Part shown: positions 3,405 through 63,786 of the stretch, one piece after another
Layout: every line of letters begins with the position of its first letter
How positions within the stretch are numbered: the first letter of the stretch is position 1
From: Nitrospirales bacterium
Lineage (GTDB): Bacteria; Nitrospirota; Nitrospiria; Nitrospirales; UBA8639
DNA: 64,000 nt
Assembly: GCA_965223295.1 (NCBI GenBank)
Contig: CBDCWC010000003.1
Location: forward strand, 768,001-832,000
Direction of reading: 5' to 3'
The notes under the pieces: model-generated
Seen by the model: the letters and a program-made list of their open reading frames with translations, nothing else
What the model was told of the DNA's origin: nothing
Database searches by the model: none
Program-made: the position numbers and the translations under genes

Positions 3405-3475
3405 TGGGTCTGTTGATCGCCAAAGGCTTCATGGCGAAATATGGCCCTTGATATTTTCATTATTCAACACGCCCT
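3405..3475. mobile_element. Short (71 bp) MITE, family B
   Basis: Ends TGGGTCTGTTGA / TCAACACGCCCT with TAC on both flanks. Internal GGCGAAATATGGCCCTTGATA is shared with other copies. Confidence 0.7.
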
Positions 3476-6202: not shown

Positions 6203-6332
6203 GGAACCCTCCCTGGTACCGCTAAAAATTCTACTGTAAAAGGACCGTCTAATAGAATCAACACTTTTTTCTGATGTTTGTGTGCTGTAAGGCCACCCTC
6301 GCCTTTAAGATACAATCCCCTGTCAGGCATTA

Positions 6333-6525
6333 GGGGGCTGTTGAATAATGATGATATCAAGGGCCACATTTCGCCTCTGTGACGTCACATATCAGAGGCC
6401 TCGGGGCTGTTCAAAAAAGTCCGTTCAGCAAGGCCACAGCCATGTTCGCGCGCGGAGCGTCCTGGTAGTACGTAAGCACGGAAAAAGGGCGAGAACGCCG
6501 CTGGCGGCTTTTTTCAACAGACCCA
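6333..6525 (+). mobile_element. Long (193 bp) MITE, family B
   Basis: Ends GGGGGCTGTTGAATAA / TTTTTCAACAGACCCA with TTA on both flanks. Internal second left end GGGGCTGTTCAAAAAA. Closely similar to 13088-13280 and 44082-44274. Confidence 0.85.
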
Positions 6526-6534
6526 TTAGCGAAA

Positions 6535-12987: not shown

Positions 12988-13087
12988 AGTAAAAAAACAT
13001 GAGAGGTACGGGGTCAGGCAGGAAGTGAAAGCATCACACTCCTTCATTTTTCTGTTTGCCTTTTTTCTCATTACAGACATTTTCCAA

Positions 13088-13280
13088 TGGGACTGTTGAA
13101 TAATGATGATATCAACGTCCAAATTTCGTCTCTGCGAGATGACATGTCAGAGGCCTCGGGGCTGTTCAAAAAATTCCGTCCAGCAAGGCCGCAGCCATTG
13201 TTGCGCGCGGAGCGTACTGGTAGTACATGAGCACGGGAAAATGGTGAGAACGCCGCTGGCGGCTTTTTTCAACAGACCCT
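13088..13280 (+). mobile_element. Long (193 bp) MITE, family B
   Basis: Ends TGGGACTGTTGAATAA / TTTTTTCAACAGACCCT; colinear with 6333-6525. Confidence 0.85.
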
Positions 13281-13302: not shown

Positions 13303-15723
13303 ATGGCTAAACGCCCAAAAATTCCTCCGTCATCCAAGGCGGCAACCGCCACGACAGTGATTCCTGTTCCGTTAGATGAAACGACACGAGAACGGTATTT
13401 GAATTATGCGCTATCCGTCATTACTTCACGAGCGCTGCCCGACATTCGCGACGGATTAAAGCCGGTACAGCGGCGCATCTTGTATTCAATGTTCCAGAAC
13501 CACCGCCTCACGCCGGAACGCCCCCCGATTAAAAGCGCCAAAGTCGTGGGATCAGTCATCGGTGAATGGCATCCACACGGCGATGTGGCCGTCTACGATG
13601 CCATGGCACGTATGGCCCAACCGTGGTCGCTGCGTGCCACCCTCGTTGATGGCCATGGGAATTTCGGGAGCCAAGATGGAGACCGCCCTGCTGCCTACCG
13701 ATATACCGAAGCCCGACTGACGCCACTGGCCCTTGAACTGTTGAACGAACTGAACAAAAACACCGTCGACTTTCACCCCAATTACGATGGCAAAGCTGAA
13801 GAACCCCTGGTCCTGCCTTCACGCTTTCCTAATCTGCTCGTTAACGGATCAACCGGTATTGCGGTTGGCATGGCCACTAACATGCCTCCACATAATTTGG
13901 GCGAAGTCATTGACGCAGCTATTGCCCTCATCGGCAACCGAAACGCCTCCATTTCTGATCTGATGAAATCCTTGAAAGGTCCTGACTTCCCGACCGGCGG
14001 TGAAATCCTCAACACGCGCACGGAAATTCGGGAAATCTACGAAACCGGCCAGGGTTCAATCCGACTGCGCGGAGAATATACGGTTCGCACGGTGGGAGCC
14101 GGAAAATCGGAAATACTCATTACCTCAATTCCATTTGCTGTTGATAAAGCCACGATTGTCGAACGCATTGGGGAGCTGATTCTCACCAAAAAGATCCCTC
14201 AGTTAGTTGACGTGCGTGACGAATCCACCACCGACGTGCGCATTGCATTGGAATGTCAAAAAGACGCCGACCCCCATTTGGCTATGGCCTATTTGTTCAA
14301 ACATACGCCGCTTCAAAACAATTTTTCCGTGAACATGACCTGTTTAGTGCCGATTCCCAGCTCATCTATGTCACGACCCGACTGCCTCAACCTCAAGCAA
14401 ATGCTGGAGCAGTTCATCGACTTCCGGTTCACGACGGTCACACGCCGATTCACCTATGACCTGCAAGTCTTGGAACGCCGCATTCACATACTATATGGCT
14501 TTAAGAAAATTTTTGATGCGCTTGATCAGGTCTTAAAAATCATCAGACAAAGTGACGGCAAGTCCGACTCTGCCACCAAGCTTCAACAACGGTTTGGGCT
14601 GGACCCAATCCAGACTGACACCATTCTTGAAACACCCATTTATAAATTGTCCAGAACCGAAATAAAAAAGATGTTGGACGAACTGAAAGACAAACTGCGT
14701 CAAGCCAAAGATCTCAAAACACTCTTAGGTTCTAAAACACGATTATGGGGAGTGGTGAAAAAGGAGTTAGGGGAGGTCGCCAGGACCTTTGGGGACAAAC
14801 GGCGAACGAAGATAGGCCGCCGCCAAACGGAAGAAGTCGAATTCGATCCTGATGCGTTCAGAGTCAAAGAGGATGCGGTTATCACAATCTCCACCGACGG
14901 CTGGATCCGGCGTGTTGGGCTGATTAAGGATCTGTCGAAAGCCCGCGTTCGTGAAGGTGACCGCCTGATGACCATACTCGGAGGAAATACGTTTGACTCT
15001 CTGGTCATTTTTTCAAATTTCGGCAGCGCTTACACGATACGAGTTGGAGACATTCCTCCTGCCAGAAGCGGTTATGGAGACCCCGTACAGAAACTCTTTA
15101 AATTTAAAGATGGCGAACGCATCATCGGCGGATGGAGCTATGATCCCCGCATGTTGTCTTATCTTGGAAACCCTTTTTCATCTCCAAAATCAAACGGTGG
15201 GCAACTGGCCCTGTTCGATAAAAAAGGTCACCCTCAAACGACCGTCTCTCTGGAGGCCATCGCTGTCACGACCAGCGGGATGGGGCTTCGCATTGCTCTC
15301 AGTTCGTTTCAGGAGCCTTCAACTCGATTGGGACGAAAGTTTTGTAAGCTTAAAGATGGTGAAGAAGTTGTAAGTTTGGAAGTTATTACCGGCCCACTCA
15401 AACAAACCATGGTTGCGGTGGCTTCCACCAAAGGGCGGGCGCTCTTGTGCAAAGCTGAAGACATCGCCCAGTTGGCGGGTCCTGGCCGCGGTGTCATTGT
15501 GCTGAAGTTGGACCCTAAAGATACTCTGGTTGGTTTTAAACTCTTGTATTCCAAGGAGGACCGCTTGGTCCTCCTCAAAGAAGGGGGCGGCACAATTCCA
15601 GTGACCCTTTGTAAATATCAAGTGGTGGGACGCGGAGGGAAAGGGCATGCCCTCATCAAACGAGGCCGCTTCAGCGGAATGGAACCGGCTGACGTGAGCA
15701 TCCCGGTTTTTCAAACGGAATGA
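13303..15723 (+). CDS. parC: Type IIA topoisomerase subunit A (topoisomerase IV-like)
   Basis: RALPDIRDGLKPVQRR, HPHGD, catalytic AAYRYTEARL, GPDFPTGG; no GyrA-box at the start of the CTD. Confidence 0.8.
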   Translation: MAKRPKIPPSSKAATATTVIPVPLDETTRERYLNYALSVITSRALPDIRDGLKPVQRRILYSMFQNHRLTPERPPIKSAKVVGSVIGEWHPHGDVAVYDAMARMAQPWSLRATLVDGHGNFGSQDGDRPAAYRYTEARLTPLALELLNELNKNTVDFHPNYDGKAEEPLVLPSRFPNLLVNGSTGIAVGMATNMPPHNLGEVIDAAIALIGNRNASISDLMKSLKGPDFPTGGEILNTRTEIREIYETGQGSIRLRGEYTVRTVGAGKSEILITSIPFAVDKATIVERIGELILTKKIPQLVDVRDESTTDVRIALECQKDADPHLAMAYLFKHTPLQNNFSVNMTCLVPIPSSSMSRPDCLNLKQMLEQFIDFRFTTVTRRFTYDLQVLERRIHILYGFKKIFDALDQVLKIIRQSDGKSDSATKLQQRFGLDPIQTDTILETPIYKLSRTEIKKMLDELKDKLRQAKDLKTLLGSKTRLWGVVKKELGEVARTFGDKRRTKIGRRQTEEVEFDPDAFRVKEDAVITISTDGWIRRVGLIKDLSKARVREGDRLMTILGGNTFDSLVIFSNFGSAYTIRVGDIPPARSGYGDPVQKLFKFKDGERIIGGWSYDPRMLSYLGNPFSSPKSNGGQLALFDKKGHPQTTVSLEAIAVTTSGMGLRIALSSFQEPSTRLGRKFCKLKDGEEVVSLEVITGPLKQTMVAVASTKGRALLCKAEDIAQLAGPGRGVIVLKLDPKDTLVGFKLLYSKEDRLVLLKEGGGTIPVTLCKYQVVGRGGKGHALIKRGRFSGMEPADVSIPVFQTE

Positions 15724-15812
15724 ACACCTTAAGATATCTAAAGGTTTCTTAGAGATCACAGGAGATTATTAATAGGGATATAGGGAATCATTGTGTTTGA
15801 TTATCCTTAAAG

Positions 15813-15964
15813 TCCCCCTCCATTGTAAGGACGGGGAATTTTTCCGAAGAGGGAAAATTCGGGAGGTAGAAACGTGGAGTGGGAACACGTCAGTTTCAAC
15901 CGACAACTTATTGCCAATTGCACAATTCTACCTCACCTTAATCCTCCCCTTACAAAGGGGAGGA
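15813..15964. repeat. Inverted doublet of the TCTACC/ACA-loop palindromic repeat (family R)
   Basis: Reverse unit 15813-15870 and forward unit 15927-15964 (TCTACC..TCCTCCCCTT-ACA-AAGGGGAGGA), 56 bp apart. Confidence 0.85.
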
Positions 15965-16057
15965 CGCTTACTGAACCACGCTTCGGACTACGCCTGCGGA
16001 AACAGCATTCCCAAAAAATTCCGCAGTGCGTTCTTTTCAACCTAGAAGGATTACGGA

Positions 16058-18007
16058 ATGGCTAAATCATACGGTGCGAGTGACATCTTGGTCCTAGAGG
16101 GCATTGAACCCGTTCGTCGTCGACCCGCCATGTATATTGGTGGAACGGATAAGACCGGGCTTCATCATTTGGTCTGGGAGATCTTAGACAATGCCATAGA
16201 TGAGGTCATGAATGGTTATGCCTCTCAAATAATTCTGGAGCTGGATAAATCTCGAGAGGGCATTCGCATCACCGATAATGGTCGAGGCATTCCCGTTGAC
16301 AAACACCCCAAACACAAAAAATCTGCGTTAGAAATTATCATGACCACCTTGCATGCCGGTGGAAAATTTGAAACTGGCAGCTATATTCATTCTGGGGGGT
16401 TACATGGAGTCGGCGCTTCCGTCGTAAATGCCCTCTCTCGACATTTAGAAGTCCAAGTCAAACGAGACGGAAAGGAATGGGAACAGACCTATCAAGCGGG
16501 AATTCCGCAAGGTCCAGTAAAAAGTAAGGGAAAAGGCGGTGTGCGAGGTACAGGAACCTCCGTGTACTTTCGTCCTGACCCCAAGATTTTTGGAAAGACC
16601 ACTCAGTTCGATCCAACCATGCTGCAGGACACGTTGGATGCCAAAGCCTATTTGCATAAAGGCTTAAAACTCACGTTTAAGGACGGAACCACAGGCCAGA
16701 CTCATCAATTTCATCATGGACAAGGGCTCCAAGAATATTTGCAAAAACTGGTAGGAGACCGAGGGAAGAAGCCCACGGTGGACTTTGTGTTTTATCTTGA
16801 ACGTCAACTTGGGAACGAAACATCAAGCTCGAATAGTGGCACTCAAAACATTGGCCTGGAGCTAGCCCTCCAGTGGACCGACGAACCAGCCGAATTCGTC
16901 AAAAGCTATGTGAATGGGGTCGCCACGCCTAATGGTGGCACACATGAAATGGGCCTCCGTGGTGGCCTTGTGAAGGCCGTGCGCAATTACATTGAGACCC
17001 ACAACTTAGTGCCCAAAGGACTTTCCTTGCAAGCTGAAGATATTCGCGAGGGCATGGCGGCCGTTCTCAGCGTGCTGGTCTTACACCCACAATTTCAAGG
17101 ACAAACAAAGGAACGGCTAAATAATCCTGAAGTCCAAGCCCAAGTAGACACCATTATCCGACCTGCCTTGGAAAACTATCTGAATAAAAATTCGACCATC
17201 GCCGAAACTCTAGTGGGACGAATGGTCCTAGCGGCACGAGCCCGCGAAGCATCGCGGGAAGCCTCAAAAGCGGTGATGCGCAAATCGGCCGTAAGCCACC
17301 GTCTGAATCTTCCGGGCAAACTGGCTGATTGCCAAAGCACTGATCCCACCATCAGCGAATTGTTCATCGTAGAGGGTGACTCGGCTGGAGGAACAGCAAA
17401 ACAGGGGCGAGATTTAAAAACCCAAGCCATCTTGCCCATCCGCGGCAAAGTCCTGAACACGGAAGAACTCACGCTCGCCAAGGTGGTGGAGAACAAAGAG
17501 CTGGCGGATCTCGTGAAAGTACTAGGCTGTGGAATTGGGAAAGATTTTACCCTCAACAAACTTCGCTATCACAAAATCATTTTGCTGATGGATGCCGATA
17601 TTGATGGCTATCACATTAGTACCTTGTTACTCACCTTTTTCTTTCGCCATATGCCAGAACTGATTCGGGGCGGCCATGTTTTTATCGCCCAGCCCCCGCT
17701 GTATCGCATTGAAATAGGCAAAGAAATTCAGTGGGCCGGAACTGACGAAGAAAAGGATAAAATTGTGACAGGTGCTCGTGCCAACGCCAAACCCATCATT
17801 AGCCGCTTTAAAGGGCTAGGGGAAATGTTTCCACAACAACTCAAAGAGACCACCTTAAACCAGTCGACCCGTCGCTTACTCAAAGTCGAACTCCTCGACG
17901 AACTCAACACCGACCGCACATTCCATGATTTGATGGGCAAACGCACCGATGCGCGTTATGAATTTCTCATGGCCAACGCCGGCTCTGTTGAGAATTTGGA
18001 TGTGTAA
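16058..18007 (+). CDS. parE: Type IIA topoisomerase subunit B (topoisomerase IV-like)
   Basis: EPVRRRPAMYIG, DNGRGIP, GLHGVG, VEGDSAGG, PIRGK, DADIDG and RFKGLGEM motifs; 649 aa. Confidence 0.8.
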   Translation: MAKSYGASDILVLEGIEPVRRRPAMYIGGTDKTGLHHLVWEILDNAIDEVMNGYASQIILELDKSREGIRITDNGRGIPVDKHPKHKKSALEIIMTTLHAGGKFETGSYIHSGGLHGVGASVVNALSRHLEVQVKRDGKEWEQTYQAGIPQGPVKSKGKGGVRGTGTSVYFRPDPKIFGKTTQFDPTMLQDTLDAKAYLHKGLKLTFKDGTTGQTHQFHHGQGLQEYLQKLVGDRGKKPTVDFVFYLERQLGNETSSSNSGTQNIGLELALQWTDEPAEFVKSYVNGVATPNGGTHEMGLRGGLVKAVRNYIETHNLVPKGLSLQAEDIREGMAAVLSVLVLHPQFQGQTKERLNNPEVQAQVDTIIRPALENYLNKNSTIAETLVGRMVLAARAREASREASKAVMRKSAVSHRLNLPGKLADCQSTDPTISELFIVEGDSAGGTAKQGRDLKTQAILPIRGKVLNTEELTLAKVVENKELADLVKVLGCGIGKDFTLNKLRYHKIILLMDADIDGYHISTLLLTFFFRHMPELIRGGHVFIAQPPLYRIEIGKEIQWAGTDEEKDKIVTGARANAKPIISRFKGLGEMFPQQLKETTLNQSTRRLLKVELLDELNTDRTFHDLMGKRTDARYEFLMANAGSVENLDV

Positions 18008-26870: not shown

Positions 26871-27659
26871 ATGGGTAATACTTCGACAAACAGATCTCTG
26901 GATCGATTGCTACCTGAAGGGCAGTTGGTCAATCGTCAATGGTTCAAGGCAAGGGGCGTGGATCGCCCACTCGTAGACTTTTGGCTCCGCTCGGGAAAAC
27001 TTGAGGCCGTGTCACGTGGCCTCTACCGGCGTCCCGGACCTCCCTTAAAATGGGAGCAGGTTGTCTATTCTTTAAATGAGATCGGCATACCTATTCATGT
27101 CGGCGGGCGTAGTGCCTTAGAGCTTCAGGGTCTTGCGCATTATCTCCCGCTAAAAGGCATCACAACCATTTCTCTTTACACGACGACGTCCAAGGTGCCT
27201 TCCTGGATCCACTCCTATCCTGGTGATTTCACTCTGAAGGTTCATTCCCATCGTTTATTTAGAAGATTGCCGCAACTCGCAGTTCATTCAAGAGCGTTTG
27301 GATCTTGGGACTGGCCTATTCCGTATGCCACGATTGAATTGGCGTTGATAGAATTTTTGGTGAAGGTTCGTCATCCTGCTGATTTTGACTTGGCGGATAA
27401 GTTTTTTGAATCGGCGACTGTACTCCGACCCGCCTTAATTCAGGAGCTGTTGCTCGCCTGCACTCACGTACAGGCTAAACGGCTCTTTCTCTGGTTTGCC
27501 AATCGGCATCACCATCAATGGTTCGGAAAACTCGATCTTACAAAGGTTAATCTTGGTCGTGGCAAACGGGTAATCGTGAAGGAAGGATCGCTCGATACCC
27601 GTTATCACATTACCGTTCCTCGGACCATGGCACATGGAAACCACGAATCCGTATTTTGA
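26871..27659 (+). CDS. Type IV TA antitoxin, AbiEi family
   Basis: wHTH-like N-terminus; HVGGRSALELQGLAHYL, KRLFL and NLGRGKR motifs; directly upstream of AbiEii. Confidence 0.88.
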   Translation: MGNTSTNRSLDRLLPEGQLVNRQWFKARGVDRPLVDFWLRSGKLEAVSRGLYRRPGPPLKWEQVVYSLNEIGIPIHVGGRSALELQGLAHYLPLKGITTISLYTTTSKVPSWIHSYPGDFTLKVHSHRLFRRLPQLAVHSRAFGSWDWPIPYATIELALIEFLVKVRHPADFDLADKFFESATVLRPALIQELLLACTHVQAKRLFLWFANRHHHQWFGKLDLTKVNLGRGKRVIVKEGSLDTRYHITVPRTMAHGNHESVF

Positions 27660-28551
27660 ACAAGTCCGGCTGCTTGTGACCCTGCTTCCGCATGTGTCGC
27701 GACACCCTTGTTTTGCCTTAAAAGGTGGGACGGCAATTAATTTGTTCATTCGGGACATGCCCCGTTTGTCTGTCGACATCGATCTCGCCTACTTGCCGGT
27801 TCAAGACCGTGACACTAGCCTAACAGCAATCGATCGGTCATTAAACGTTATTGGTGCGGACATCGAACGAGTCGTTCCACGTTCTGTTGTCCACAAGACG
27901 GTTCTAGAGGACACAGGGAACGTGTTTAAATTGCTTGTGCAGCAGGGAGAAGTCAGCGTCAAAGTGGAGGTGACACCGGTATTACGCGGCAGCGTGTACC
28001 CACCTACTGTAGGTGAACTCGTTCCATTGGCACAGGGCGAATTTGGCTATATACAGATGCCTCTCCTGAGCTTCGAGGATTTATATGCGGGAAAAGTGTG
28101 TGCGGCACTGGATCGCCAGCATCCACGTGATCTTTTCGATGTCTACTTTTTACTCGCCAACGAAGGCATAACCCCGAAGCTGAAGAATGCATTTCTTGTG
28201 TATGTAATCAGTCACAATCGCGCTATTACTGATTTGTTGGCTCCGTTACCTAAAGATATTGAACAAGTCTATCAATCGGAATTCGTAGGTATGGTCAACA
28301 AACCGATTGAGTTAGAATCGCTCTATGCTACACGCGAGGAATTGTTTAACACGATTCACCGCCTGTTGACAGATCAAGATCGACAGTTTCTTTTGAGTTT
28401 TAAACGTGGTGAACCCGAGTGGCATCTTTTGGACCTGGAGAGTGTTGACCAACTTCCGGCCGTTCGGTGGAAGCTACTGAATATTCAGCGCATGACACCC
28501 GCGAAACGCGAACAGGCTGTTGAACGTCTTCATCGCGTGTTATTCGGATAA
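27634..28551 (+). CDS. Type IV TA toxin, AbiEii/AbiGii nucleotidyltransferase
   Basis: FALKGGTAINLF, RLSVDIDL and KVCAALDRQHPRDLFD motifs. Confidence 0.92.
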   Translation: METTNPYFEQVRLLVTLLPHVSRHPCFALKGGTAINLFIRDMPRLSVDIDLAYLPVQDRDTSLTAIDRSLNVIGADIERVVPRSVVHKTVLEDTGNVFKLLVQQGEVSVKVEVTPVLRGSVYPPTVGELVPLAQGEFGYIQMPLLSFEDLYAGKVCAALDRQHPRDLFDVYFLLANEGITPKLKNAFLVYVISHNRAITDLLAPLPKDIEQVYQSEFVGMVNKPIELESLYATREELFNTIHRLLTDQDRQFLLSFKRGEPEWHLLDLESVDQLPAVRWKLLNIQRMTPAKREQAVERLHRVLFG

Positions 28552-29931: not shown

Positions 29932-31698
29932 ATGACTTATGACGCTTCAGACCAATCAAATGCTACACTGCTCATCATGCATTCTCCTGACTCACCTTCG
30001 AAGATCGGCGGTAACCTCGATCGCGTGAAATGCTATCACGAGCAAACCAAGCATGAATTCAATCGTTTTGCTAAATCGCTAGGCTATTTGGACTGGGCGA
30101 ATCAACCTGATCCGTTTCGTCGGTTTCAGGAAGCTCCGCTTATTTTCTTCCCCTTGCTCAAACTTGATGAAGAGCCAATCTCACCGTCGTACGAAGCGTT
30201 GTTTCAGAAGTCTACGATTCCGTCCCAACAAGTTACACTTCATACCGTATCCCGATTCTTTGAATATGCCTTATCATTGACGGCTTGGAAAGAATACAAC
30301 GGCACACGCTGGGCCTTACGAAGTAATCCTTCCAGCGGAAACCTGCATCCTACAGAAGGCTATCTGTTTATTGGCGACCTTCCAGAACTTTCTCTGGAAC
30401 CAGGGCTCTATCACTACGCGCCCAAAGAACATGGACTAGAGCATCGATGGCAGGTTTCTTCAGGTGTGGCTCAATCCCTTCTTCAACACTTTCCAACAGA
30501 AAGCTTTTTAGTTGGACTGTCATCTATCCATTGGCGCGAAGCCTGGAAATATGGTGAGCGGGCCTTTCGCTACTGCCAACATGATATCGGCCATGCAATT
30601 GGCACACTGCGCATCGCCGCCACCACCCTGGGCTGGAATATGGTCGTCCTCTCTGGTACATCTGATGACACGATTGAGCAATTTCTAGGCTTACAACGCC
30701 AAGAGGATTTCCATACATCTGAACGCGAGTATCCTGAATTGCTAGCGGCCGTGTGGCCAGGAACCATCCAAGCATCTCTAGAGATAGGCTTGGCCTTTGA
30801 AAAACCATCAGAAAAACTCTTAGTATTTGGTGAATGGAAAGGAACAGCTAATCGTTTAAGCAAAGATGATCCCGTCCACTGGGAAATTATTGATAAAGTC
30901 ACTGAAGGCGCCTGGAAATCCACACAGGAATCCAAAACCATATCGTTCTCGTCTCATTCTGCAACCCAGCCCCAAACCTATGAGAAAAAAAGCGAACCCC
31001 TTGCAGGCCAAATTATCCACCAACGGCGAAGCGCCGTGTCATTTGATGGTCACACCAGCCTTTCGGTTAGTCGCTTTTACACGATGCTGCTACGGATTAT
31101 GCCAAACAACCATTTGCCATTTTCTGAGCGCCCCATGCCCTGGGATGCACTGCCCTGGAACCCAACCGTTCACCTAGCCTTATTTGTTCATCGAGTCGAC
31201 GGACTTGAACCGGGAATGTATTGGCTCAACCGCAATCCCAAAGAACGGCGGGTCACAGATTTTCAGTCAAACATGCATGAGCAGTTTGTTTGGACAACGC
31301 CAAGGAATTGTCCCTCTGAACTCCCGCTCTACCTACTAGAAGAGGGCGATGCAAAAAATTTAGCGATGCAGCTCAGTTGCGGGCAGGAAATCGCGAGTGA
31401 CAGCGCCTTTACCCTTGGAATGATTGCGGAATTTGATGAAAACCTGGAAACGTATGGGCCCTGGTTTTACAAACGCCTGTTTTGGGAAACCGGACTTATT
31501 GGTCAAGTGTTCTATCTGGAAGCCGAAGCCGCAGGAGTACGAGCCACCGGCATTGGCTGTTTTTTTGACGACCCCGTCCATCGTGTTTTAGGTTTTTACC
31601 CCAACACCAAATGGCAATCCCTCTACCACTTTACTGTCGGCGGCCCCGTCGAAGATGCCCGCCTGACGACTTTGCCACCCTATGAACATCTAAGGTAA
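29932..31698 (+). CDS. Two-domain SagB/ThcOx-type nitroreductase
   Basis: YHEQTKH, LRSNPSSGNLHPTE, WREAWKYGERAFRY and TGIGCFFDD motifs. Confidence 0.9.
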   Translation: MTYDASDQSNATLLIMHSPDSPSKIGGNLDRVKCYHEQTKHEFNRFAKSLGYLDWANQPDPFRRFQEAPLIFFPLLKLDEEPISPSYEALFQKSTIPSQQVTLHTVSRFFEYALSLTAWKEYNGTRWALRSNPSSGNLHPTEGYLFIGDLPELSLEPGLYHYAPKEHGLEHRWQVSSGVAQSLLQHFPTESFLVGLSSIHWREAWKYGERAFRYCQHDIGHAIGTLRIAATTLGWNMVVLSGTSDDTIEQFLGLQRQEDFHTSEREYPELLAAVWPGTIQASLEIGLAFEKPSEKLLVFGEWKGTANRLSKDDPVHWEIIDKVTEGAWKSTQESKTISFSSHSATQPQTYEKKSEPLAGQIIHQRRSAVSFDGHTSLSVSRFYTMLLRIMPNNHLPFSERPMPWDALPWNPTVHLALFVHRVDGLEPGMYWLNRNPKERRVTDFQSNMHEQFVWTTPRNCPSELPLYLLEEGDAKNLAMQLSCGQEIASDSAFTLGMIAEFDENLETYGPWFYKRLFWETGLIGQVFYLEAEAAGVRATGIGCFFDDPVHRVLGFYPNTKWQSLYHFTVGGPVEDARLTTLPPYEHLR

Positions 31699-31729: not shown

Positions 31730-31967
31730 TCTACCTCCTCTAGCTCCTCCTTACAAAGGAGGGGGAAATCTCAAACGACTGTTTTCCACAGATCTCTCCT
31801 AGCTCTCGAACTTTCCTGCTCTTTTCCTCCCCTTTGTAAGGGGAGGTGAAGGTGGGGTAGAGTTACTAATACTGAAATAGATGTTCAAAACCTTTCCTGC
31901 GAATGGAATCAGTTGAAAATTGTGAATCTCTACCTCCCATAATCCCTCCTTACAAAGGAGGGAAAAA
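31730..31967. repeat. Three family-R palindromic repeats (+,-,+) upstream of DUF559
   Basis: 31730-31765 (+), 31825-31862 (-), 31929-31967 (+); each has TCTACC followed by a hairpin with a CTT-ACA-AAG apex. Confidence 0.88.
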
Positions 31968-31988
31968 GTTTTCGACCACGATTGATCC

Positions 31989-33038
31989 ATGCCGACTAAA
32001 AAAGGAAATCCGAAACTTCTTCCCATTAAGCGTCGACTTCGGTCCAACTCAACCCGGACGGAAGAATTGCTTTGGGCAAAACTCCGCCATAAACAATTCT
32101 TCCCCGTAAAGTTCCGTCGGCAACATGGAATTGGACCATATATTGTGGATTTCTTTTGTCCTGAAAAACGTTTGGTTGTTGAAGTTGATGGGGACACCCA
32201 TGCGACTGAAGCTCAACAAACAAAAGATCACACACGCGAAGAGTATCTCAGGTCTTTGGGGCTACAAATTGTACGGCACACAAACCATGAAGTCCTTAAT
32301 AATCTTGATGGGGTTTTGGAGGACCTGATTCGACGCGTCTTAAAAGAATCTACCTCCTATAATCCCTCCTTACAAAGGAGGGAAAAACTACCAGACAAGG
32401 ACATTACGCTTTCTTCCAAGAAGTCAACAAAAGAAATTAGAAATGCCGAACTGAAACCTCTGCCGCGTGAGTTTTATGATAGGCCCACATTGAAGGTGGC
32501 GAAAGCACTGTTAGGGAAAGTGCTCGTTCGAGAAACATCCAAAGGCAACCTAATGGCAAAAATTGTCGATGTTGAAGCCTATGTTGGACCAAAGGATAAG
32601 GCTTGTCATGCGTCCAAAGGCCGGACGAAACGCACAGACATCATGTTTGGTTCAGCCGGATATACGTATGTCTATCTCATCTATGGAATGTACCACTTGC
32701 TCAATATCGTCACTGAGCAAGAAGGCTATCCCGCTGCTGTTTTAATTCGAGGTCTGGAACCTGTAGAAAAAGTAGCTCCATCAACACGTCAAACTCGCAT
32801 TGATGGCCCGGGACGGGTCGGCCGTTTCTTAGAACTAGCCCACACCCATAACGGCCTCGATACAACACAAGGCAAGACGATTTGGGTCGAAGATCATGGC
32901 GTCACCGTTCCAAGGAAGAGCATTCAAGCCCTACCCCGCGTCGGCGTCGACTATGCAGGAGAATGGGCAAAGAAACTGTGGCGATTCTGTCTCCCTACTT
33001 CTTCTCCCCCCAAAAGACGTCAATCCAAAATAATATGA
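31989..33038 (+). CDS. DUF559 (Vsr-like) endonuclease domain fused to DNA-3-methyladenine glycosylase (MPG/AAG family)
   Basis: N-terminal RRLR...EELLWAKLR...KFRRQHGIGPYIVDF...VVEVDGDTH; C-terminal LPREFYDRPT..VAKALLGK, VEAYVG.D.ACHAS, YVYLIYGMY, AVLIRG and PRVGV. Confidence 0.88.
   Translation: MPTKKGNPKLLPIKRRLRSNSTRTEELLWAKLRHKQFFPVKFRRQHGIGPYIVDFFCPEKRLVVEVDGDTHATEAQQTKDHTREEYLRSLGLQIVRHTNHEVLNNLDGVLEDLIRRVLKESTSYNPSLQRREKLPDKDITLSSKKSTKEIRNAELKPLPREFYDRPTLKVAKALLGKVLVRETSKGNLMAKIVDVEAYVGPKDKACHASKGRTKRTDIMFGSAGYTYVYLIYGMYHLLNIVTEQEGYPAAVLIRGLEPVEKVAPSTRQTRIDGPGRVGRFLELAHTHNGLDTTQGKTIWVEDHGVTVPRKSIQALPRVGVDYAGEWAKKLWRFCLPTSSPPKRRQSKII
32349..32387 (+). repeat. Family-R repeat in frame in the DUF559-MPG linker
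   Basis: TCTACCTCCTATAATCCCTCCTTACAAAGGAGGGAAAAA; 38/39 identical to 31929-31967; translated as STSYNPSLQRRE. Confidence 0.9.
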
Positions 33039-36548: not shown

Positions 36549-36723
36549 CCTCCCCTTTTGTAAGGGGCTTGGGCCCGAAGAGGGCCCAAGCAGGTGGGGT
36601 AGAGTCTGGCGTCAAGCTCATGATGTTCATTTTTAAATATGAAGTTCTTATTGCTAGTCGATGTCTCTACCTCCCGAATTTTCCCTCTTCGGAAAAACTC
36701 CCCGTCCTTACAAAGGACGGGGA
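36549..36723. repeat. Inverted doublet of family-R repeats
   Basis: Reverse unit 36549-36603 and forward unit 36666-36723; the latter is 55/58 identical to the reverse complement of 15813-15870. Confidence 0.85.
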
Positions 36724-44043: not shown

Positions 44044-44081
44044 AGAAGAAGGATCCTCAACCCGCCGTTACCTTTTATTTA

Positions 44082-44274
44082 TGGGTCTGCTGAAAAAAGC
44101 CGCCAGCGGCGTTCTCGCCCTTTTTCCGTGCTCACGTAATACCAGTACGCTTCGCGCGTAAAAAGAGCTGCGGCCTTGCTGAACGGACTTTTTTGAACAA
44201 ACCCGAGGCCTCTGACATTCGACGTCGCAGAGACGAAATGTGGCCGTTGATATCATCATTACTCAACAGCCCCT
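44082..44274 (-). mobile_element. Long (193 bp) MITE, family B, reverse orientation
   Basis: Reverse complement of the 6333-6525 type; TTA on both flanks. Confidence 0.85.
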
Positions 44275-44296
44275 TTATGGGCATGAGGTAACCCTG

Positions 44297-56556: not shown

Positions 56557-56747
56557 GGGGATTGTTGAATAATTCAATTTCAAATCCCGAAGATGCTCTC
56601 AGAGGGTAAGCGCCTTCAATCCGACGGGCCTGTTCAAAACAGTCCGTCCGGCAAGGCCGCAGCCCTTTTTGCGCGCGGAGCGTACACCCCCTACGTGAGC
56701 ACGAAAAAATGGCGAGAACGCCGCTGGCGGCTTTTTCAACAGGTCCA
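56557..56747 (+). mobile_element. 191-bp MITE, family B, with an alternative left module
   Basis: GGGGATTGTTGAATAA ... TTTTTCAACAGGTCCA with TTA on both flanks; the right TTA is the stop codon of the OmpA ORF. Confidence 0.8.
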
Positions 56748-57470
56748 TTAAAAAGATGAAGAAGGCGAGGCTACCTGAATGCGTTGCCCCTTAGAGAGAA
56801 ATTTGGTGAACTCAAGCGCCGGAGTCAGATCCTGATCGGCAATCAGTCGTAAACGAGCGAGACATCCTCGTTGCGTCTGTCGGATAGCCAAATTCGAAAA
56901 AACATGCCGTGCGCGGAGATTATCTTCCTGACACGCTTCGCTTCCTATTCGACAGATAAGCGGATCTTGGCCATAATTCAGGATAGACATTTGCTGGGGC
57001 TGAATCCCTAACAGCAGCAAATACTGAGAAAGGGTCATGAGATGAAAGTTCGCCCTTGCCAGATTATAGGCTGAGGTGCCGCGGGGATCGCAATGTCCTT
57101 CGACCCGCAATTGCCATTCCGGTTCTTGCTGCAAGAATTCGATTGTTTGAAGAAGTAATCCTTTCAATCTGTCATGAATAACTTGTCGATGTTCATCGAA
57201 ATACACATCAGCCAACACTGGCCCATCTAACGCTTTTTGAGGCTGAGCTTGCCTTTCGTTGGCCCCTGGAACACCTGAGGTTTTAAACCTCAGAAGGCTG
57301 AAGGCTTCTTGAAGGTTTTCTAATTGAAGGAGAAAGGAGGAGGCCGGGGTATCACTTGGATGAGAAAGAGAAAGACCTGCGGCTACCACACACTCGCCGC
57401 CGATCAGAGTTAAGCTCAAGAAGCAGCCTAGTGAAACGTTCAACGAAAATCGACGCATCCGAATACACAA
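56748..57470 (-). CDS. OmpA/Pal-like domain protein (divergent)
   Basis: DVYFD, VEGHCDPRGTSAYNL and NYGQ motifs; signal-like N-terminus. Confidence 0.75.
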   Translation of the reverse strand: MCIRMRRFSLNVSLGCFLSLTLIGGECVVAAGLSLSHPSDTPASSFLLQLENLQEAFSLLRFKTSGVPGANERQAQPQKALDGPVLADVYFDEHRQVIHDRLKGLLLQTIEFLQQEPEWQLRVEGHCDPRGTSAYNLARANFHLMTLSQYLLLLGIQPQQMSILNYGQDPLICRIGSEACQEDNLRARHVFSNLAIRQTQRGCLARLRLIADQDLTPALEFTKFLSKGQRIQVASPSSSF

Positions 57471-63595: not shown

Positions 63596-63786
63596 CGGAT
63601 CTGTTGAAGAAACCCGACAGCGGTGTTCTCGCCATTTTTCCGTGCTCACGTCGTGCCAGTACGATCCGCGAGCAAAAATGGCTGCGGCCTTGCTGGACGA
63701 CATTTTTCAACGACCCTATGGAACTGATAGTGAACAGCTTCCTGGCGAAATATGGCCCTTGATATCTTCATGATTCAACGCTCCTA
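63596..63786 (-). mobile_element. Family B core plus short module (191 bp), diverged
   Basis: GTTCTCGCCATTTTTCCGTGCTCACGT..GGCTGCGGCCTTGCTG followed by GGCGAAATATGGCCCTTGATATCTTCATGATTCAAC; ATCC on both flanks. Confidence 0.75.

Follow-up and report, generated by a model that had tools for sequence, protein, structure and literature searches.

Known since the 1990s, BoxC/PIT/TM repeats are recorded from more than 260 genomes (PMC4666352). They were described as class II purine-motif intrastrand triplex repeats, with CCCTCNCCC-N3-6-GGGNGAGGG-N3-GGGNGAGGG as the TMECO consensus (Holder et al., 2015, PMC4666352). No mobility functions were found for them in the 2015 study (PMC4666352). A second system of comparison is the REPtron, in which the enzyme genes (RAYTs) are described as fixed in the same extragenic place and as vertically inherited (PMC3733652; bioRxiv 10.1101/2021.07.10.451892), and in which the dispersed REPINs are reported to decay slowly after RAYT loss (bioRxiv 10.1101/2021.07.10.451892). 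On the side of the nucleases, Vsr, DUF559 and 3R3P have been placed in one group (PMC3424549). Among titles and abstracts, mostly outside subscription journals, no literature link of DUF559 or YcjD to BoxC/PIT/TM repeats was found, and the consulted sections of PMC4666352, PMC1189080, PMC12817139 and PMC3733652 contain no link of DUF559 or YcjD to these repeats.

The locus described here lies in a stretch of 64 kb, referred to as the window, of a genome of 3.78 Mb in three contigs (G000). In it a DUF559 gene is framed by short palindromic units of two subtypes, L and R, and is fused to the host gene mpg. The coordinates are collected in Table 1.

Table 1. Repeat units, the DUF559-mpg fusion and the bordering host gene in the 64-kb window.
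Feature	Position	Strand	Remark
R-type unit with nested GAAGAG hairpin	15813..15870	-	Doublet between two type II topoisomerase subunit genes
L-type unit, partner in the 15.8-kb doublet	15927..15964	+	
Nitroreductase-family host gene	29932..31698	+	Left boundary of the insertion site
R-type unit	31730..31768	+	Deletion from here to the last R unit gives the single-repeat scars of relatives
L-type unit, left end of the canonical cassette	31826..31861	-	L+R doublet with the unit at 31929
Additional R-type unit, after L and ahead of the start codon	31929..31967	+	38/39 identical to the downstream unit
ORF of 349 aa	31989..33038	+	In-frame fusion of a DUF559 nuclease domain with methylpurine-DNA glycosylase (mpg)
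DUF559 (PF04480) domain, aa 14-116	32028..32336	+	Putative catalytic E25, D54, H71 and D80 intact
Right-end R-type unit of the cassette, at the DUF559 C-terminus	32349..32387	+	Codes part of the linker to Mpg
MPG domain (PF02245), aa 161-337	32469..32999	+	Host gene, own start replaced
L-type unit with nested GAAGAG hairpin	36549..36603	-	In a doublet flanked by the genes of rubrerythrin and an Fe-S/CCG-domain protein
R-type unit with nested hairpin	36666..36723	+	Partner in the 36.6-kb doublet

An earlier note on this DNA had counted eight units, in the cassette area and in doublets at 15.8 and 36.6 kb, and the tag TCTACC was indeed found at all eight, on the plus strand at 15927, 31730, 31929, 32349 and 36666 and on the minus strand at 15865, 31856 and 36598. 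Both its figures for the 39-bp direct repeats at 31929-31967 and 32349-32387 were reproduced (38/39 identical, period 420 bp), and the single apex changes at 15813 and 36549 are present in the sequence, as are the three stems it had quoted. Six of the eight units folded better than all of 200 shuffles (z -4.0 to -5.4); the units at 31730 (z -1.4) and 15809 (z -1.9) did not. The doublets at 15.8 and 36.6 kb were recognised as L+R by inspection, since nested hairpins had hidden both from the doublet pattern. The Rfam scan of the window gave no match. Over the whole genome approximately 28 such units are spread over all three contigs. The scan for CTACC followed by a hairpin gave 29 matches, one of them unlike the others, among 3528 CTACC sites, while four control tags gave 1-6 matches each and TCACC, which overlaps the tails of the A-type and BoxC-type repeat families, gave 19. 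The strict unit pattern was matched 16 times genome-wide and its reversed control 0 times.

Three of the window units carry an extra hairpin with a GAAGAG loop in the linker (15836-15862, 36572-36594 and 36676-36698). Hairpins of this kind, with a variable stem, occupy the linker of A-type and BoxC-type units alike and were also seen in the loci L034, L041, L043, L044, L048, L052, L065, L076, L375, L397 and L398. At the 36.6-kb doublet the hairpin is found in both units in G000, in one in G055, G064 and G012, and in neither in G016; it is a nested insert that is gained and lost. The 15.8-kb doublet lies between the genes of the type II topoisomerase B and A subunits (window 13303-18007, minus strand).

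Each unit is built, in order, of the tag, a 7-nt tail, a 3-nt linker, a 7-bp stem and the loop TTACAAA. The stem is mirrored by the 5' tail in the way that an antiparallel purine triplex demands, and because of this mirroring each unit is read as a triplex motif beyond a hairpin; the folding programs returned hairpins only. All seven triplets were compatible in 14 of 18 units of G000, in 25 of 27 units from 400 kb of two relatives and in 40 of 42 units from other loci, counts which take only units with a 3-nt linker, out of 29, 32 and 48, respectively. Shuffling gave means of 5.1, 12.6 and 20.3, with maxima of 10, 20 and 32. The result leans heavily on two founder types, and rarer variants keep the mirror too. 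Between the unit at 31730-31768 and its counterpart in G055 there are two C-to-T changes, at mirror positions of tail and stem, and the opposite arm is the same; the mirror is thus kept where Watson-Crick pairing is not. Tail-to-tail doublets joined L and R in 23 of 23 cases, a count that leaves out two "LL" pairs (one hairpin, both strands) and four head-to-head pairs, all L+R.

Judged by sequence, the units are a variant of the BoxC/PIT/TM triplex repeats and not REPs, and the earlier description of them as a REP-like palindrome family of their own gives way, in view of the mirrored tail and the L+R pairing, to this assignment. They share with the described class a stem-loop with a mirror-image third strand attached via a 3-nt loop, an intergenic position and variable flanks (PMC4666352). 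Inverted doublets always join two subtypes, in 5/5 cases in E. coli (PMC4666352) and in 23/23 here. The differences are a 7-bp triplex core, a TTACAAA loop and a CTCTA tag, against the 9-bp CCCTCNCCC core of TMECO, and units that in some cases fall inside coding linkers. Moreover, a DUF559 gene is framed by units here, whereas PMC4666352 reports no mobility gene at the repeat sites. With their 7-bp core and longer A/T loop the units do not fit the exact TMECO consensus, and for that reason they are a variant of the class, not TMECO itself. The REP hallmark, a GTAG or CGTC tag directly 5' of the hairpin, is absent; the tag here is CTACC, some 11 nt before the stem, and the GTAG that occurs in the units falls 3' of the hairpin, on the other strand.

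The fusion ORF reads DUF559, the second repeat and MPG in one frame. The frame has no ATG, GTG or TTG between codons 110 and 168, and for an intact Mpg the start of the cassette appears to be needed. The structure model of the DUF559 domain (pLDDT 88.9) was matched by Foldseek to 3HRL (E 2.6e-7), to the catalytic domain of I-Bth0305I (9.5e-5) and weakly to Vsr (0.03-0.05); 3HRL was also the sole solved structure matched by sequence (E 2.6e-20), and there was no HUH protein among the listed matches of the domain. The residues E25, D54, H71 and D80 correspond by spacing to E170, D196, H213 and D222 of I-Bth0305I (PMC3239194). The set is complete in 27 of 31 clade-A genes, and dN/dS was 0.20 for the stand-alone genes and, among eight fused pairs, 0.15-0.26 in seven; the putative catalytic residues are intact and under purifying selection. 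With I-Bth0305I, an EDxHD homing endonuclease (PDB 3R3P), the system shares the fold and the D..H..D spacing of 17 and 9 residues (PMC3239194). Also reminiscent of homing are the filled and empty alleles at a single site and one case of short shared flanks. Unlike it, DUF559 here has no NUMOD DNA-binding region, intron or intein, only 13 residues precede the domain, and the gene is free-standing or fused, framed by repeats and present at many unrelated sites. E. coli YcjD, NGO0050 (PDB 3HRL) and Vsr belong to the same structural group (PMC3424549), and ycjD ends BoxC-like; in contrast to Vsr, no cytosine methyltransferase was seen among the neighbours examined, and the Foldseek match is weak. 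Plasmid and phage searches with the domain gave at least 40 and at least 4 records, respectively, all below 60% identity. To our knowledge no strand-transfer chemistry has been described for a single Vsr domain.

G000 carries a second DUF559, fused to a PAD_porph-family gene and with BoxC-type flanks (L001 331-1842; region G000:C2:1487326-1487643). This fusion is common in the genus, and the changed motif residues and decaying repeats of several copies suggest an older, decaying insertion.

Among clade-A loci the R unit overlaps the C-terminus in 29/29, one of them decayed, and an inverted L unit stands directly before the start in 21/29; the remaining eight, all of this genus, have an extra R unit there. 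By its sequence the canonical cassette is inverted, L-DUF559-R, and in the window the order is L, spacer, R, gene, R. G055, the closest relative, is near-identical through the gene and shares the upstream R, and its downstream unit is different, which makes the 38/39 match a recent copy. On this comparison the 420-bp direct repeat is secondary, an extra R unit placed ahead of the gene, and the region around the cassette is a recombination mosaic. It had been proposed that the direct-repeat block itself excises as a circle and integrates, leaving one repeat behind. The 38/39 identity and the single-R alleles before mpg (G144 and two further forms in public contigs) would be expected from such a cycle, which we nevertheless regard as very improbable. 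The layout is inverted in 21/29 loci and the downstream unit of G055 differs, which speaks against the block as the mobile unit. The single-repeat sites, predicted as pre-insertion sites, do exist and turned out to be deletion scars: they link the 31730 unit with mpg while both flanks of the filled alleles are preserved, which marks them as losses. Twenty clean-empty mpg alleles carry no repeat at all. Direct repeats at both ends are not a conserved feature of the relatives, and no one-repeat pre-insertion site was found. Among the joints listed for four sequencing runs, neither a 420-bp joint nor a circle junction was seen, which carries little weight as these were contigs of related strains. 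No RNA dataset was among the listed runs (best share of words 0.39).

The 32 clade-A loci fall into at least 11 neighbourhoods, eight of which occur among 13 genomes of one genus, and the proposal that the cassette is itself mobile stands in the sense that it changes place. At the mpg site of 45 genomes 18 alleles were filled, 20 clean-empty and four scars, two held other inserts and one was truncated. Clean-empty alleles keep the mpg start codon, and their nitroreductase-family gene lies 26-38 bp from mpg. Filled, clean-empty and scar alleles interleave on the mpg tree, where the filled state needs 10 changes, eight of them forced by strong branches. Clean-empty alleles are not easily produced by deletion, which points to repeated exchange or invasion of alleles. 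Interleaving as such needs no nuclease, because for the filled alleles the DUF559 tree broadly agrees with the mpg tree (Spearman 0.61, with the frameshifted gene of G198 omitted from the DUF559 tree) and the region is a general mosaic; descent is broadly vertical for the mpg-fused copies only. A single homing-like case may be G220 and G198, which share both cassette ends and about eight mpg codons though their mpg genes are 69% identical, in a locus that is mosaic anyway. In two relatives (L011 and L020) the nitroreductase-mpg gap contains another insert of approximately 800 bp, by eye similar to a small toxin-antitoxin pair, which makes the gap appear to be an insertion hotspot.

At two operon gaps of genus g8, surveyed in 30 genomes each with three of the 60 loci unresolved, the alleles include short gaps, single units, doublets, unrelated repeats and the cassette. 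In the gene that follows, G160 and G072 are 99% identical; G160 is filled, and G072 has a gap of 58 bp. In these ABC-operon gaps (L334-L393) several unrelated small repeat families turn over, with flanking proteins 95-99% identical between species. Of 11 genomes, 8 have the 36.6-kb doublet, and the other three carry a terminator-like hairpin instead. By eye, no target-site duplications were seen at the three site series (mpg, the g8 gaps and the 36.6-kb doublet).

Two small elements of other kinds lie in the window as well. A second, unrelated dispersed family of about 190 nt, MITE-like and in both orientations, was found at 6328-6526, 13086-13279, 44081-44279, 56557-56767 and 63597-63785, with partial copies at 3405, 44589, 48268, 51445 and 54372. 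An AbiEi/AbiEii type IV toxin-antitoxin pair is located at 26871-28551, 3.4 kb upstream of the cassette.

The link between gene and repeat was followed across genomes and phyla. Among 201 genomes of the order the repeat was present in all 34 with a clade-A gene (called at E<=1e-39) and in 43 of 167 without; in family f2 the figures were 5/5 and 6/85. Median copy numbers with and without the gene were 69 and 1 in genus g8 (13 and 25 genomes) and 8 and 1.5 in g1, the genus studied here (11 and 20 genomes); p-values on such comparisons overstate, since the genomes are kin and not independent. Collection scans were run with a clade-A alignment, the broad alignment A3 having no stretch conserved enough, and they cover the best 80 out of 577 confirmed relatives in species genomes and out of 476 in metagenomes, sets which lean to clade A. 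Of these best 80 homologues in species genomes, 43/78 had a reverse unit upstream, 51/77 had a forward unit downstream and 60/75 had either, against 11 (upstream) and 6 (downstream) of 1184 control windows; the opposite orientations were found in 18/78 and 15/77, and 15 of 75 had no unit by the generic triplex scan. Metagenome DUF559 loci, again the best of the confirmed relatives, gave 34/69 and 35/67, with controls of 8 and 6 of 760.

On a tree of 210 proteins the 46 rows with an A-type repeat need 8 changes, compared with 41.9 when shuffled, and fall into three supported groups and one row; in this quick tree 99 of 207 forks are open, and clade A does not come out as a single clade. A multi-phylum group of 30 rows has mostly a AATCCCCC-tagged repeat, and the ycjD side has BoxC-type units with CCCTCACC. 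E. coli ycjD itself ends in a partial BoxC-like hairpin, with a full BoxC unit approximately 170 bp further on. The second DUF559 of G000 is flanked by BoxC-type units and not by the A type, and as two DUF559 genes of one genome have different repeat types, host base composition as the cause is argued against. The partnership of DUF559 and repeat in a REPtron/REPIN-like layout, the central proposal of the earlier note, is supported by the flank enrichment and by the co-presence of gene and repeat in genomes, and the data agree with what it had expected of hairpin enrichment beside the genes, of repeat type following protein clade, here across phyla, and of copy number following the gene.

A passive association would explain part of this otherwise: an ancestral block of gene plus flanks in each clade, moved by ordinary recombination. 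DUF559 would then serve the host in repair or maintenance, and the repeats would be retained for a regulatory or mutagenic role. Purifying selection, a single clade-A match per genome, the long-lived fusions to mpg and to a peptidyl-arginine-deiminase-family gene and the mosaic locus all fit such a history, as do the unrelated repeat families gathered in the same intergenic gaps and the terminator-like hairpin that relatives have at the site of the 36.6-kb doublet. It is made unlikely by the patchy presence of the gene (34/201 genomes), by at least eight different sites among 13 genomes of one genus, and by the matching of subtypes across phyla and within one genome; according to earlier studies cited in PMC4666352, PIT/TM motifs also showed neither promoter nor terminator activity.

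The strongest contrary result for our best reading comes from G072 and G099 (single contig, 100% complete), which are without an intact DUF559 gene and keep 48-65 repeat copies, including 41 (28+13) and 55 (25+30) exact units, respectively, with no visible decay. Abundant repeats in the absence of the gene had been named as evidence against the partnership; they do occur in these two genomes, which counts in part against it. By analogy to the reportedly slow decay of REPINs after RAYT loss, the gene may have been lost recently. The two genomes also suit a reading in which the nuclease parasitises the repeats, cutting gene-less L+R doublets and homing in by repeat homology, while another enzyme or host repair spreads the repeats. 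The gene does sit between L and R at many different sites, and its closest characterised structural relative is a homing endonuclease. Of 19 doublet spacers, moreover, 16 were not recognisable as gene-derived and two more reached p<=0.02 uncorrected, which is weak; the two tested in G000 gave no significant gene derivation. Still, one spacer is plainly a gene remnant (leader plus first codons of the DUF559 gene), the copy number is higher with the gene also among the repeat-bearing g8 genomes (median 69 vs 18), and the clean-empty mpg alleles offer no doublet for homing. We find parasitism rather unlikely on this balance.

The reading we prefer, to which we assign a probability of roughly 55%, is a REPtron-like system built on a Vsr-fold nuclease and recombination, in which recognition, cutting and copying are predicted. 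Its ground is the observed layout, L/R polarity, triplex-type co-variation and matching of clade and subtype, together with the copy-number correlation and the presence and absence at orthologous sites. The system, selfish or semi-domesticated, would have two parts, a nuclease cassette and a dispersed population of its ends. The cassette would be a single-copy Vsr-fold nuclease gene framed by two non-identical, potentially triplex-forming ends, the L end inverted just before the start codon and the R end overlapping the C-terminus; the dispersed ends would occur singly or as L+R doublets resembling gene-less derivatives of the cassette. The nuclease would recognise its own repeat subtype as a non-B structure and nick or cut beside it, and host recombinational repair would then place copies of the ends, of doublets or of the entire cassette at new or allelic sites, much as in homing. 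Copying by cutting and repair would explain junctions of the replacement type without target duplication. In the window, the cassette would have inserted long ago in place of the mpg start, leaving Mpg to be made as a fusion, with extra R units accumulating later and one copied onto another to give the 420-bp direct repeat.

A system of this kind would work like a REPtron with predicted homing-endonuclease chemistry and is a member of neither. The traits shared with the REPtron are a single-copy enzyme gene between inverted short repeats, dispersed doublets, a copy number linked to the gene, repeat-specific enzyme subfamilies and repeats that outlast gene loss (PMC3733652; bioRxiv 10.1101/2021.07.10.451892). 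The enzyme, however, is a Vsr-fold DUF559 and not an HUH Y1 tyrosine transposase, and in contrast to RAYTs the cassette is known from at least 11 neighbourhoods and can be fused to host genes. IS200/IS605 elements and MITEs have asymmetric structured ends, no target duplication and internally deleted derivatives. The cassette resembles them in its structured, unlike ends, in lacking target duplication and in having deleted derivatives, and differs in that there is no HUH or DDE transposase and the junctions are imprecise replacements.

We put forward tentatively, as a possibility still short of an even chance, the wider idea that across bacteria the BoxC/PIT/TM-class repeats are mobilised by cognate DUF559/YcjD proteins: a distinct mobile class whose ends would be recognised as intrastrand triplexes and spread by nuclease-triggered recombination without a transposase, each clade with its own triplex subtype. 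The DUF559 nuclease is on sequence grounds a testable candidate for the long-missing mover of BoxC repeats. With a named candidate enzyme of about 120 residues and clade-matched substrates, the origin of BoxC/PIT/TM repeats becomes a direct biochemical question, E. coli YcjD included. If the idea is true, it would give a function to a widespread DUF, possibly that of a natural triplex-reading nuclease. The locus also offers an allelic series at one site, empty, filled, scarred and fused, in which a cassette would invade, capture a host start and be lost.
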